Counted from the first letter of the stretch, positions 39,280-46,207 are shown. The stretch: 64,000 nucleotides of DNA from Trichodelitschia bisporula (GCA_010356995.1 ML996698.1:245923-309922), one strand, 5' to 3'. Notes: a model not told the origin generated them from the letters alone. Numbers and translations are program-made.

Positions 39280-41870
39280 GGCGGGGGTTTAGTAGTAGGC
39301 GTTGGGAGATGGGGATTGGGATTGGAATGGGGATGGGGATGGAGATGGGGATGAGGATAGGGTATCTTGTGAGTATCTCGACTCCTGTGTATTTATGTGC
39401 AACGCGAATGTCATGTTACGTCATCTTTTGTAGGATCGGGAATGGTGGAGACCAGGAGAGCGTCCAATACAACACAAATTTGCTAGAAGGCTTCGACTTC
39501 CAACTACAGCGGAATATCACGGCACTCGGGACGAAGTCTGCAGAGATGACAGGCGTGGCGGTACAGAGCAGAGGTGGCGAGGCGACTGAGGGCAAGAATG
39601 GCGAAGACGATACTTGGGATATCACCTCGCATCCAGCATCAAGATCCAGCACCACCGGGGTCAATCGCCAGCACGCGCCGCTCCCTCCTTCCACTCGTCC
39701 CAACCCCTTCAAGGCGCCGTCGCTATGCTGGCGGGTGCATCGGACGAGACCAACCCAACCGCCGTATAAGTTTTACTTTCCGCAAAGTACTGCTATCGAT
39801 AGGGGGGGGGCAGGTATGGAATGGCCCAGCAGTATGGGCAGCAGCTCCATGACCGTCTGCACCACATGCCTCGATCCCGCGTTCGAAACCCTCCCAAGAA
39901 AAATCCCCTCATGGCTTTCAAGGCTTCTTTCGTACTAGAGGGGGTTTTCGTAAGCCGTGATGGCTAGCTTTTTGGTGTTTTGGGCTTTTTTTGTGGTTGT
40001 GTTCAGGTGTTTTTTTGCTGTTGTGGGATCTGGCTGAGGGGGCTGAGAGGGGAGCAACACGGCAAGGCAACACTGGCTGCAAGGTATCACGGTATATGCA
40101 ACCCTTTTGCTGGTTTGCTCAACGCAGCTCTTTTGACCGCTGAGTACAGATGGCCTGCGAGTTCCCCGCATGATCTAATCCGGTACACATTCTCTCCCGA
40201 GTTTCCCATCACAAGGCTTACAACAAGGAGTAGAATTTCAGTTGCTTCTTACAGCCACTGGGATTTCCTAGGACAATCCACTTCAAAGTGTATCATAAAA
40301 GTCCATATACCTCCCAAGCCTCGATCACTCAAGCATTTACACAGGAAAATAAAGCGTCAATCCGGATCCGTCACTGTTTCAACATGCTATCGTCCACCGT
40401 ATCAGCCATCAGCAAATGTCCATCCATATACTTTCGCCGAAAGGAGCAGCCCCAGATAAGGCGCAACCTTTCCCCCGGCCATCTAGTACCAAATATGTGA
40501 CTGCCCATGTCCACTTATAGCCATCCTGGTGCCGAATATACACGGTGTATATAGTGTTTGTCCCACGAACGGCTCCCAGAGTTGGAGCGAAGGATTCTGA
40601 CTGGAGCCCTTCCTGTGATCACCATATATCGAAACACGATCCCCGAAACCACCTATATGAGAGGATAAATGAGAACAGTCGGCACGAGGACGAGATCTGA
40701 AGGATGATGACGGTACACGAGGCGCGCTTCGAGCGGGGGAATGCGGGGAAGGGAAATGTTTCAGCGGTGGAGTGGAATGATGAACTCGCGGAGCTGCATG
40801 CGAGGAATGCGCGTCGGTTGTGAATCGGCGAAGGTGAGCGAGGTGTGCGCGCAAGACATGAAGGCGTCTCGAAGCGAGTCAACCCGTATAAGTGGCTCGC
40901 AGATTGCGGCATGGTTGCTTATCGTCGTCGGGGGAGACATGATGACCCCGTCCTTCGAGGCGCCTCTCGGACCAGGTTTGGCGGGGGAACCGAAACGTAT
41001 AATACCAGATGCAGATTTGGAAGCATGAAACTCTGTGGAGCGGAAGAGGGACGAAGTGACTAAACCCAACGGCGATGATCTCCCTTCATGATGATAGGTG
41101 GATCGGATTTGGGGGGGAGGGAAAAGGTATATGACTTGATGCCTGTGAGCTTCCCTCGCACAACAGGCTCAACTATATCCATCTCGCGGGCAAGATTTTG
41201 GAACGCCCGCACGTTCGTATAAGAAACCTTGGTGCCCGGTGAGATGCTGTACAGAGTGTGCAGGTTGTCGAGGAGGTGGTCGGACAACATATACGAAAAA
41301 CGTTGATTGCCGTGTCGATGTCAAGATTAAACCTGCCGCTCTGGTTGAACAGCCGAGCTTGAGTGACCACGCCGTCGTCGCTGCGCAGTCTCCGGCGCTG
41401 TCGGGTATATCGCGGTGCCGTTTGATTGGTGGAAGGGACTGGAGCTGGGGGACTGACAGGGCGTAGCGAGGATGATACATCCGTGGAGATTCTCCACTCC
41501 TGCTGGAGCTTGGTCGCGTTCTCATGGGCGCAGAAGCCGCTCATTTGGAGCGCATTGCCGACCAGGTTCTCGAGAAGCTTCTCCAGCTTCTTCCAGCGGG
41601 ACAGGTAGAGGCGACGAGGGACGAACCCGCTCTCTAGGTCCTCAGGGAAGACCACTGCATCCGGGTGCTCGAAGTGGAACGCCCGGGCCGCTTGGAGGAA
41701 GTCGAAGCCCCACTCCTTGATGTAGTTATGGGCGGCCTTGTCGCTGAGACCAGAGAACTTTTTGAACAAAGAAGTCTCTACGGCCGTTCCACATGTACGC
41801 CCTTAAGCGGTTTGCGGACGAATTCCGAGTCGTCGGGCTCTGGAGCCTTGGAGGCAGATAAAGGATATCA

Positions 41871-41957
41871 TTCCAGGCACTTGACCTGATCCTCTTTCGG
41901 GAGCATCGAAATGTTGTTCTGGAATGGGTATGATACCCAGAGACCCTTATACCGGAC
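41871..41957 (-). pseudogene. Isolated fragment of UDP-galactopyranose mutase (GlfA/UGM)
   Basis: [29 protein letters not shown] matches the recalled fungal UGM segment [21 protein letters not shown]. Confidence 0.85.
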
Positions 41958-43132: not shown

Positions 43133-43480
43133 CAGTCCGAGCTTTGCAACCGCCTTGCGGGCTTTCTTCTCGTTGCGCGAGTGGACGGCAACAGACGAGT
43201 CCATGGGGATCACGGCCTCACCCTCGTTGTCGACCTTAGCATTCTTCCCCTATATACGAGCGGCGGCGCCGGCGGACCGCCGGTTGTCGGGGTCGTCAGG
43301 ATTTATAAGCGGGCCTTCTTCTCGTTGCGCGAGTGGACAGCAACGGACGCGCTTCGTCGTGGGTATTGAATGCCAGGTCCATGTCCTGGAGATGGTGCAT
43401 GAAGTTCTTCATCATCCCCAGCAGCGCTTCTCGACCTCAGAGTCATCGTCGGAGCCAGCGTCCTCAACCTCAACATTCTC
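43133..43480 (-). pseudogene. Two tandem fragments of NAC alpha subunit (Egd2); the upstream copy is interrupted by a probable GT90/CAP10 fragment
   Basis: VEDAGSDDDSEVE ... [14 protein letters not shown] and [26 protein letters not shown]; insert MMKNFMHHLQDMDLAFNTHDE at 43353-43415. Confidence 0.85.
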
Positions 43481-46207
43481 CTGATATACTCGCAGCGGCG
43501 CCGGCGCCAGACCGCTGGCAGCCAGGATCTGACCAGGATCTACTTTTCCAGGAAGTACGCCGTCGGGATGGGCCCACTGCGGAATATCTTCGTTAGGATC
43601 TATAAGGCGTGGACTTGCATTTTCTTGATATTCAAATGGGTTTTGAGGTGTTGGGAGAGGTTTGGAACTGGAGTTAGGAAAAGGTTGTGGATGGGTTGGG
43701 TTTGTGTGAACTGAGGAGGAAGAGAATAGGAAGAGAATAGGAAGAGGAAAAGGTTCAGAGTTAGAAGAGGGTAGCACCGTCGTTGTACACGGTAGGCGCT
43801 CCGAGAGCGGAGGTTTTCATATATAGTCGCTCCGTTTGCCGGGGGTGGTTTGCGCTTGGTGGATCGACGGAGGAACAACCGGTGCGAACCAGGTGGGACA
43901 CGCGGAAACAAGGGCATGCGCCTTGAAGCGCTATCTGTTGCTCGTTAGATGCGTTTACATCTCGTGTGAAGGGTTACTCACATAGATGCGTTTATATAAT
44001 TTCAAACTCATACTATCCCGATGGAGCCCGTCCGCTGACGTCGTTTTGTGCGCATACTTGACAGTTGCGGATTTGAGCTCCGGCGGGACGCGCGGTTGGT
44101 ACTCCTTAAGAAATGTCGAGATTGGGTCGTCGCTGTGGATTCATCGGAGACATTCGTCTTAACCGATGGCTTGTCCATGGCAGGCTTAGCAGCTTCCGTC
44201 GTCTTCGCCGTGGCGGGGGCAGGAGTGATAGCCCCAGCTTCGTCAGTTTAATACCAGTGTTCTTGAACTCCTCTGCCCGTACGACGTTGCGCAAATTATC
44301 AGAGCGGCTGCCGGACGTCGTCGATGCGTTGCGAGGGTATGTGCCGTTGAATCCCTTGATGATGTTGCGCGGGAAGGGTCAGACAGTAGGGACCACCGAA
44401 GCGTGATACCCAACGTCGGGTTGTCCGGTGGAATGGAAAGGTAAATTTCACGAATGCGCTGTCCCTCCAGTCCATGTGGTTAGTCATGCCATTAAACAAA
44501 CGCTCGAGCATAACTTACCTTTGCGGTCCACACCCCGAGGCTTATAGTGGAGCGGAGCGGCGCGGTGCTCGGCACCGCGGCGTTTGCGATATATCGGCGT
44601 TGCCGCTGTCTGTTGATTGTTAGATGAGTTTACACCTCGCGTTAGGGATACGTACATAGATACGTAGATGACGACAGCTGTCGTATACACATCGGTCGCC
44701 TTGTACTCCTGAAGCACGTCGAGAAACTGCCAGACACCGCTAATCTTAGCCGTCACTCGGCTTTCCGAGTGGGCGTCAACCGGAATATAAGAAAAAGGTG
44801 GAAAGTAGAGCTTGTGCACAGAGAAAGTGTCCTTGAGGCATGGTTGTGGAGGAAGAAGAAGAGGAAGAGGCAGTGAGCACCGATTTTGACAACGCTCCTG
44901 AGCCGCGATGAATAAGCGCCCATGTGAATACCGCGTTGAGTAGTCGGAAATCTTGGCGCCCGTCTCGACAGTGAGTAATGGTAAAACGTTTTCCCAGCAG
45001 TGAATACCGCTCAAATGCGCAGTGATGGTTGACAGACCAGAGCCGCGGCCGGCATCACAGGAAGGCACGGCTGCGATTCAGCCTCGTCGGCGAATTTCTT
45101 GTTCGGCTCCATCCCCTGCGCCTCGGCCCGGTGCGGGACATACGCCTCTCGCCGCGCTTCTTCCCAGCCACCACTCCTTACATCAAAAGTCATCCCCATT
45201 TCCCCTCCCCGGTCAACCCCACCCAACCCTTCGAACATTCCCCGCCGCCCTCAACCCTCCAGCAACACACCAACTGACGTCTCCAGCGCCAAGCCCGTAA
45301 TCCTCGTATGCTTGCCATTTCGGGCAACGGCAGAGCGGGGCAGGGATCATGGCGCCGCGCCGCCGGGCTGAGATTGCGCGCTGCAGGGGTCATCCTAATC
45401 TAGATCTCGCGTTGCCGGGGCATGGGGTTGTTGACGTGCAAGGGGATAAAAGGAGATCGATGTTCATGCAAGATGCCGTCTGACAAGATTGGAGTCTGAT
45501 AAGAGGATGATAGAACTTCAGCTTTGATGTGAAGAGCAGGCGAGCCTCAGGTCTGCTGTGAGGAGAATACATCTGTTTACCGTCAACGTCGTCCCAAGAA
45601 GTGAATCAACAATCGGACCACAAAGACGCGGCATGATCCAGCCATACCGCGTCCTCTCGGAACATACCGTACGGTAGTTGATACCGTAAATAGCCCGTCC
45701 CCAACCCACCCGTTCCTTCACAATGGGGGCGGAACTCGTGTCCCCCCAAAAGCGCCAGTCACCACCACCGCGGTCCTCCCTCCACCCCCATCTCCATCAC
45801 AATCCCTCTGACTCTCCTCCCCCTGTGGCTTACCTCACACGACCGCCATCCCCCTTTCCGCCCAGCGCCCGCCCTCCCCCCCGTACCCTAGGCCCAATCA
45901 CCCGCGCACGCCACCCGCACGAGCCCCTTTCCGTCCCATGCGCAGCCTTCGCCGCGATGGTGATGTGGAAATAAGGTTCTCACGCCAACTTGACCGGTAC
46001 GGTAGGACGGGCTAGCAACGGGCGCGCAGGCCAAGGCTGAGCGGCACGCGTGGAGGCAACCCAGAATCTCTGCGAAGAATGTATAAAGAAGGGCGCTGCG
46101 CCGCGCGCGTCGTCGTCCGGTTCTTTGTCCGTCCAGTCGCTCCTTGCATCCATCGTCGATACCCAGCCTTACTTCCCACCTTCCGTCAATCCTTTGAAAT
46201 CATCGCA

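Follow-up and report, generated by a model that had tools for sequence, protein, structure and literature searches.

Short pieces of unrelated genes are brought together in several described systems, and the locus considered here resembles each of them in part. It is a patchwork of about 5 kb (~39.8-44.8 kb) between the genes CYT2 and PLAC8 in a 64,000-nucleotide stretch of the Trichodelitschia bisporula genome (GCA_010356995.1, ML996698.1:245923-309922; hereafter the window, with positions counted from its first letter). Helitrons are marked by a 3' CTRR that follows a GC-rich hairpin and by a 5' TC, insert between A and T, and in maize show an orientation bias in their captures. Helitrons and Pack-MULEs carry pieces of several unrelated genes, including untranslated regions (UTRs), exons and introns (PMC4224331, PMC2773423; for fungi PMC4289320). 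The T. bisporula locus shares with Helitrons, Pack-MULEs and Pack-TIR elements the adjacency of short, unrelated host-gene pieces (exons, UTRs, introns) that have diverged from intact donors; captures of this kind are often transcribed as chimeras. Unlike them, it lacks ends, a target-site signature and element-encoded sequence, and the contigs of four runs show no second copy of it. Its pieces are also shorter, shuffled where they come from one donor, and punctuated by TATA.

In mammals and in the rice blast fungus, template switching of the reverse transcriptase, mediated by long interspersed nuclear elements (LINEs), yields bipartite and tripartite chimeric retrocopies. Co-oriented sense transcript pieces joined head to tail are found there as here; however, the present locus has no poly(A) tail, no part of a LINE or a short interspersed nuclear element (SINE), no target-site duplication and no exon-exon junction in any piece examined, its pieces are internal and not 3'-terminal, and it contains an intron-like unit. 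Mosaics of organelle or filler DNA at non-homologous end joining junctions have organellar sources and random orientation. They likewise concatenate short fragments of many sources at one repair site, whereas here nuclear genes are the sources and one orientation prevails. For double-strand breaks, complex templated insertions have reportedly been the subject of a Dna2 study. Templated insertions in yeast and human cells (PMC11724301, PMC12214859, 10.1101/2022.09.30.509517) resemble our locus in that distant loci are copied into one break, with several donors per insertion possible, lengths of ~10-1000 bp and a single copy. They are laboratory or somatic events with one to few donors; the T. 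bisporula locus, in contrast, is fixed in the germline, spans ~5 kb, and draws on at least nine donors, mostly in one orientation.

We tentatively read the ~6.9-kb interval between CYT2 and PLAC8 as a dead patchwork that is present in single copy and is neither a gene nor a recognisable mobile element. Serial template switching during the repair of a chromosome break may have built it, a reading that we prefer at somewhat less than even confidence. The pieces, 40-290 bp in length and mainly sense on the minus strand, derive from the genes of UDP-galactopyranose mutase (UGM), PFK-2/FBPase-2, Agc1, NAC-alpha and U1-70K and from several unnamed donors. The count of at least nine comprises seven contigs distinguished by depth plus UGM and U1-70K (protein level only), and the best-scoring relatives of four donors are proteins of T. 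bisporula, a Dothideomycete. A gene-fragment mosaic between CYT2 and PLAC8 had already been proposed in a sequence-only reading of the window, and PDB, library and profile searches bear it out with five named donor families on the minus strand. The fragment size of 60-130 bp and the extent of 41.0-43.6 kb given there proved too narrow, the U1-70K piece lying beyond that span.

Identity and arrangement of the pieces

For the PDB search, 40.9-45.1 kb was translated in the three minus frames with X at stops, and the three plus frames served as control. The minus frames gave 14 UGM matches (E 1.1e-7 to 6e-4), three to NAC-alpha (E 0.07-0.11) and two that we regard as noise; at E<=1, UGM accounted for 14 of 16 matches in the frame concerned. 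In the plus frames there were 1, 0 and 0 matches, the lone one being noise (E 0.73). When 42271-43023 was compared with a library of 5.8e9 proteins, 39 proteins among 2182 candidates had E<=0.01. Two of these contained 6PF2K and His_Phos_1 (E 2.9e-11), and the other 37 were mitochondrial carriers, nearly all of the Agc1/aralar type. The PFK-2/FBPase-2 piece is 84% identical to its relative over 44 residues, and all 14 of its PDB matches were FBPase-2/PFKFB. For 42962-43624, the library returned 48 proteins among 364 candidates, every one with a NAC domain (best E 8e-9), and for 44331-45077 a single protein among 3510 candidates, U1-70K (E 5.4e-5). The U1-70K piece showed 72.5% identity over 40 aa by tblastn and no DNA-level donor at >=80% identity.

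The pieces were placed by local tblastn and by profiles run against all 2330 open reading frames (ORFs) of >=10 aa in the window. A Pfam scan of the ORFs of >=25 aa (55 minus, 57 plus), which is too insensitive for pieces this short, recovered only U1snRNP70_N (E 5e-4) and Mito_carr (E 0.15). PDB searches with the ORFs of the Agc1 pieces A1 and A2 and of a 291-nt piece gave no match, a metagenome search with a 61-aa ORF matched 175 patterns of which none was confirmed, two Atlas look-ups yielded no usable match, and Rfam and tRNA scans found nothing. Some weaker resemblances were set aside: a UBA-like NAC-alpha match at 42999-43082 (iE 15), an Agc1 match at 44583-44840 (iE 1.1), and a likeness of 43764-43973 to eS27 that had been seen by eye only and for which Pfam gave nothing.

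The 291-nt piece lies in a 209-aa minus-strand frame (41176-41802) that stays open through the piece and past it, and the donor flanks are open in the same frame. This ORF had no relative among 1.84e9 representative proteins or in Pfam, PDB and Atlas; its donor may thus be a lineage-restricted gene. The GT90/CAP10 identity that the sequence-only reading had suggested for 41494-41784 is accordingly not supported, while its other named fragments, UGM, PFK-2/FBPase-2, Agc1 and NAC-alpha, all stand. It had further described two fragments as interrupted and then resumed, and this description holds for Agc1 and for the split, partly duplicated NAC-alpha.

The three Agc1 pieces, which correspond to residues 206-251 (A1), 505-529 (A2) and 531-559 (A3) of a 687-aa relative, all align to one donor contig, in which the joint 42939->41157 links A2 to A1. 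Their order is changed in the mosaic, where A2 and A3 stand ~1.5 kb upstream of A1 although A1 is upstream in the gene; moreover, A2 and A3 are 80 nt apart in the mosaic and 4 nt apart in the donor. NAC-alpha runs through residues 15-32 and ~42-56, starts anew, and then covers ~8-16 and 30-77; its halves form a degenerate tandem duplication (93% over 41 nt, 70% over 86 nt), and the short duplicate has three of the five differences that separate piece B from the present donor. Therefore, either the duplication took place in the mosaic itself, or the donor was in an older state when the two pieces were copied.

Aligner blocks are shorter than the true pieces. The PFK-2/FBPase-2 piece probably extends to ~42466 across deletions of 12 nt and 1 nt, because a 30-nt donor flank and the sequence of relatives match in frame. 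We had considered this donor flank as an intron and dropped the idea: it is coding when read in frame, and the mosaic matches again past the small deletions. Two pieces (42047-42200 and 41057-41113) are pyrimidine-rich and UTR-like. Finally, a 63-nt unit occurs twice (44604-44665 and 43929-43991; 81% identical) and looks, on the minus strand, like an entire fungal intron with a few bases on its flanks; GTRNGT, CTAAC and CAG are kept in both copies. No further copy, as would be expected of an introner-like family, was found in the window.

Donors, copy number and tests for a mobile element

Contigs of four runs were aligned to 38200-47000 at 80% likeness; the donor list is a lower bound. X1 and X2 are DNA contigs from which the window itself may derive. 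X3 and X4 belong to a second sample and study; because GT..AG skips in CYT2 and PLAC8 occur in these two alone, they were treated as RNA-derived. The pieces are matched at 83-90% identity by contigs that belong to other loci of the organism. For the four pieces 41157-41288, 41494-41784, 42047-42200 and 42301-42433, we counted 19/132, 30/291, 17/154 and 23/133 differences, respectively, which gives a pooled divergence of 89/710 (12.5%) and is homogeneous (chi2 4.8, 3 df). This homogeneity fits one event or one burst. Further donor contigs match at 42869-42939, ~42749-42788, 43132-43236, 41872-41957, ~43528-43591, 41057-41113 and 39810-39849 with 39936-39976. Depth of the DNA contigs over the mosaic equals that of the flanks, with extra depth only where donor contigs align; the locus is hence single copy. 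As in templated insertions, then, the pieces are old copies of intact donors elsewhere in the organism and the acceptor is present once.

Of 76 differences from the donors, 45 are transitions and 31 transversions; the AT bias is no more than mild, and only 27 of the 76 are transitions in the direction of repeat-induced point mutation (RIP). No RIP signature, defined as TpA/ApT >0.89 and (CpA+TpG)/(ApC+GpT) <1.03, was present in 41000-43650, where the indices (0.58 and 1.27) are the same as in the rest of the window.

That the structure is an artefact of assembly, with donor-gene reads misjoined into a chimera, is extremely improbable. The DNA contigs do break at 41903-41925 and 42047-42075, beside pieces that have words in common with donors; yet contigs overlap over these breaks at single-copy depth, and the pieces differ from their donors by 10-17% and so cannot be donor reads. 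In addition, three pieces are bridged at either end by X3 contigs with 0 differences: A1 (contig up to 41363), the 291-nt piece (41400-41869) and the 43528-43591 piece (43474-43872). The structure is thus present in a second sample. In the sequence-only reading, divergence from the donors had been named as the mark of a real, old capture and not of an artefact, and it is now observed.

Could the interval be the relic of a non-autonomous, fragment-carrying transposon of Helitron-like or Pack type, inserted once between CYT2 and PLAC8, with ends and relatives that have decayed or been lost? The UTR-like pieces, the intron-like unit and the mostly common orientation agree with such an origin, and ~70% of the zone lies outside identified pieces. 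We nonetheless regard it as less likely than template switching, though still a serious rival, since the locus is single copy by depth and the stretches between pieces match no second-locus contig in the four runs. Among the 107 window ORFs of >=150 aa there is no transposase, reverse transcriptase or Rep/helicase, as the earlier reading had also found for transposase and reverse transcriptase. Terminal inverted repeats were absent save for a low-complexity, G-rich, microsatellite-like pair (39330-39353/45783-45806) with no duplication beside it. A scan of 39000-46300 on both strands for a Helitron 3' end (hairpin plus CTRR-T), a weak test on ~12% decayed sequence, gave two candidates, both internal (42524 plus, 41565 minus). 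Captures are usually contiguous, whereas here a donor's pieces, some of only 40 nt, are dispersed and have lost their order. With no ends, terminal inverted repeats, Helitron 3' end, transposase or reverse transcriptase at this single-copy locus, the gene-fragment-capturing element proposed earlier receives no positive support. Marks of retrocopies (poly(A) tract, target-site duplication, LINE/SINE part, retroelement protein, tRNA-derived element) were not encountered at the locus either; the nearest thing to poly(A) is an A-rich but broken minus-strand stretch (39975-40022).

Directly after CYT2 lies a (TGGGGA)n microsatellite (39303-39362), and before PLAC8 a C-rich 24-nt stretch (45783-45806) that is 88% complementary to (TGGGGA)n. 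The pair brackets a 6.4-kb interval and looks like a low-complexity coincidence, not like terminal repeats.

Table 1. Features of the CYT2-PLAC8 interval and its neighbours, in window coordinates. Residue numbers refer to the respective relative.
Feature	Position	Strand	Evidence or remark
Diphosphomevalonate decarboxylase (MVD)	36622-37773	-	Pfam
Cytochrome c/c1 heme lyase (CYT2)	38237-38953	+	Pfam
Spliced low-level transcript, antisense to A1 and neighbours	39340-41363	+	X3/X4 contigs; intron 40092-40149
TATA-rich zone, marks mosaic extent	39765-44789		39 TATA in 33 sites
Two ~40-nt pieces, one donor contig	39810-39849 + 39936-39976		joint 39849->39936 in 4/4 runs; 86 nt apart in window
57-nt UTR-like piece from donor contig	41057-41113		loose ends in X1, X3, X4
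Agc1 A1, residues 206-251	41153-41293	-	83% over 46 aa; iE 4e-18; 19/132 differences
291-nt ORF piece	41494-41784	-	30/291 differences, gap-free, to 17.8-kb contig; strong minus codon signal
UGM piece, ~residues 90-125 of A. fumigatus enzyme	41868-41975	-	PDB E 1.1e-7
Pyrimidine-rich UTR-like piece, own donor contig	42047-42200		17/154 differences; donor in DNA and X3/X4 contigs
PFK-2/FBPase-2, residues ~390-445 of 551-aa relative	42298-42470	-	iE 1.6e-20 for 42298-42432
Agc1 A3, residues 531-559, 8 residues missing	42726-42791	-	tblastn; weak, next to A2; joint 42788->42869 in 4/4 runs
Agc1 A2, residues 505-529	42868-42942	-	96% over 25 aa; iE 1.4e-13; donor contig 42869-42939
NAC-alpha piece B, residues ~30-77	43094-43237	-	iE 5e-14; library E 8e-9; donor contig 43132-43236
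NAC-alpha duplicate, residues ~42-56	43309-43353	-	93% identical to 43157-43197; iE 2.6e-4
NAC-alpha piece A, residues 15-32	43430-43483	-	tblastn 83% over 18 aa; iE 0.22
64-nt piece, own donor contig, within NAC-alpha copy 1	43528-43591		place 43559, own contig depth
Intron-like unit copy 2 (GTGAGT...CTAAC...CAG)	43929-43991	-	begins 2 nt past TATATA
Coding-looking stretch	44005-44378	-	codon-usage log-odds run favours minus; no family match
Intron-like unit copy 1 (GTACGT...CTAAC...CAG)	44604-44665	-	TATA 11-19 nt from each end
U1-70K N-terminal piece, residues 17-56 of 375-aa relative	44685-44801	-	PF12220 E 5e-4
Possible inverted, more decayed Agc1 A2 copy	45132-45168	+	78% complementary to 42902-42938 over 37 nt
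PLAC8	~46.2-46.9 kb		PF04749, E 6e-14

TATA words, orientation and transcripts

TATA is by far the most enriched 4-mer of the zone, with 39 copies in 39700-44850, where 4.9 would be expected from the remainder of the window (z=15); that remainder, 58.85 kb long, holds 56. Under a Markov model of the zone's own dinucleotides, 9.2 +/- 3.1 copies are expected, with a maximum of 22 in 2000 simulations. Among 6-mers, GTATAT/ATATAC ranks first and TATATA is also high. Identified pieces cover 1539 of 5151 nt and contain only 4 of the 33 TATA sites. In a test devised after the pattern had been seen, 9 of 15 piece 5' ends (in the minus sense) lay <=15 nt from TATA (circular-shift p 0.003), as against 4 of 15 for the 3' ends (p 0.38). 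TATAT(A) abuts the first homologous base at A1 (TATAT), at A2 (TATATA) and at the NAC pieces, and both the intron-like unit (44594-44683) and a 43-nt unit (44547-44589) are flanked by TATA on either side. A bookkeeping of YRYR words, set up to compare substitution with insertion, yielded 306 observed against 313 or 295 expected. The simplest idea is that the TATA words are remnants of a TA-repeat tract that received the pieces, although we have no confident explanation for them.

From this pattern one might picture a hotspot filled stepwise, i.e., many independent small filler insertions at a fragile TA-repeat tract that left TA remnants at their sides. The enrichment of TATA, TATATA and GTATAT, their clustering at piece ends and the units with TATA on both sides speak for it. 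Moreover, the U1-70K piece has no donor at >=80% identity as against 83-90% for the others, which could mean different ages. Independent events should, however, orient randomly, whereas the pieces are mostly co-oriented; four pieces show homogeneous divergence; and the interleaving of pieces from the same donor is more easily produced by one event. We hence hold such a stepwise filling to be less likely than one event, though still a serious rival.

For each of the five named donors, and for the 291-nt ORF piece, the minus strand is the sense strand. The sequence-only reading had put all fragments on one strand; this is upheld for the six identified donors and qualified by a possible inverted Agc1-like piece (45132-45168) that matches 42902-42938 with E 0.007 within the region and whose protein-level match is non-significant. 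Codon-usage log-odds were trained on genes of the window and called held-out genes correctly, and they err locally, the PFK-2/FBPase-2 piece being called plus-like. By this measure, across 40.9-44.9 kb, 49 of 161 windows with an identified piece were minus-like and 18 plus-like; in the 106 windows without an identified piece, the counts were 26 and 5. No codon-strand bias was seen in the flanks 39.3-41.0 kb and 44.85-46.15 kb. Co-orientation is thus strong but not absolute.

X3 and X4 both contain a plus-strand contig (39340-41363) that is spliced at 40092-40149 (GTATAT...CAG; GT..AG joint 40090->40149), and weaker contigs cover 41400-41869, 43474-43872 and 45193-45587. The 5' splice site GTATAT of this intron is itself a TATA site and contains the top 6-mer of the zone. 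The transcript looks like CYT2 read-through or a low-level long noncoding RNA (lncRNA). Conceivably, such a plus-strand RNA, antisense to housekeeping genes, could regulate them or feed small RNAs; the spliced contig is antisense to A1, and the weak contigs at 41400-41869 and 43474-43872 might be taken in the same sense. We consider this function very unlikely. Donor identity of 83-90% means a difference every ~6-10 nt, which is poor for antisense or small interfering RNA targeting. There was no Rfam match, and nothing comparable was found in relatives. X3/X4 contigs proper to the locus are few or absent over most of the core, but this has slight weight, since contigs cannot show expression levels. 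Nothing points to the source of chimeric ORFs or small RNAs that had been suggested from the sequence.

Donor spans are identical in the DNA and X3/X4 contigs for the Agc1, UTR-like, PFK-2/FBPase-2, NAC-B, UGM, 43559 and 39849/39936 pieces, and so are the donor flanks seen, for UGM on both sides. From this it follows that the donors have no intron inside these pieces, and a comparison of exon junctions has no power here. From the donor of the 291-nt piece no X3/X4 contig aligned, which speaks neither for nor against RNA. The intron-like unit would be easier to derive from DNA or unspliced RNA than from mature mRNA.

Proposed history and genomic surroundings

We may envisage that a chromosome broke downstream of CYT2 at a site where gene order differs among relatives, probably within a run of TA repeats or a TA-rich tract. 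Many unlinked genes would have supplied short copies to patch the break, the copying enzyme repeatedly leaving one template and beginning on another. Occasional return to the same template could account for the out-of-order Agc1 pieces, the 80-nt excursion within Agc1 and the restart of NAC-alpha. Later changes would have been the duplication of one part in tandem, small insertions and deletions, and ~12% neutral decay. That the pieces share a sense orientation suggests templates that were single strands of one polarity, i.e., transcripts or cDNA; this bias hints at transcript templates and is no proof of them. The initiating break, the template switching, the TA tract and the RNA templates are all inferred.

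Several points weigh against this history. No examined piece spans a donor intron, so none demonstrates a spliced template, and the duplicated intron-like unit argues against mature mRNA, which leaves shared orientation as the one observation behind an mRNA origin. Even this orientation, taken for the six of six identified donors by itself, has p ~0.03, and it is weakened by the possible inverted Agc1-like piece and by a plus-leaning codon signal over 43510-43555, overlapping the 43528-43591 piece. As no adjacent pair of pieces is readable on both donors, junction microhomology, the hallmark of template switching, is so far a prediction. The share of the zone outside identified pieces could hide remains of an element. 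The TA tract is proposed from the TATA excess and from nothing else; the boundary test followed upon the pattern, and some TATA arose by substitution, for example two within the gap-free A1 block.

A more specific version, to which we give only a low probability, would make the locus a record of transcript-templated repair, in which a TA tract was extended along transcripts, some of them unspliced, returning to itself between them; alternatively, and more boldly, a site-specific process that time and again inserts host-gene copies at TATA might have acted. If true, such a transcript-templated or TATA-site capture array would be of a kind not described in fungi. A narrow literature search, which does not prove absence, found no description of a TATA-punctuated, co-oriented array in a fungus. 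What is known of complex templated insertions and of RNA-templated repair comes mainly from experiments in yeast and human cells and from cancer genomes, and a fixed germline case in a compact, transposon-poor fungal region would show a role in genome evolution. Here, the donors number at least nine, the orientation is strongly biased and the junctions have a specific motif. The locus offers a concrete object in which junctions compared with donors could separate RNA from DNA templates, and it raises the question of whether TA tracts at synteny breakpoints seed such patchworks. Were it a decayed transposon instead, it would be an ordinary pseudogene cluster.

Relatives of CYT2 were found in nine metagenome loci at 47-74% identity, and five of these keep the divergent MVD-CYT2 pair (L002, L003, L005, L007, L009). 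The gene downstream of CYT2 differs among them, an amidohydrolase following after ~0.13 kb, a DnaJ gene after ~0.3 kb or a DEAD helicase after ~1.3 kb; the distance to the next gene is thus 0.13-1.3 kb in the relatives as against 6.9 kb here. Neither the mosaic nor donor pieces nor any similarity to it was detected at the nine loci, which are too distant to provide a true empty site. The mosaic is hence lineage-specific, at a place without conserved gene order.

The window as a whole is an ordinary, gene-dense fungal region in which the ORFs with Pfam matches are housekeeping genes. Further away from the mosaic, a 779-aa minus-strand ORF (25305-27641) has an N-terminal MHYT repeat (PF03707, E 3e-14), which Pfam describes as a bacterial signalling repeat. 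RIP-like indices (TpA/ApT 1.06, (CA+TG)/(AC+GT) 1.00) occur in a single 2-kb bin of the window, 8001-10000, which contains six TATA and overlaps a TRAPPC13-like gene.

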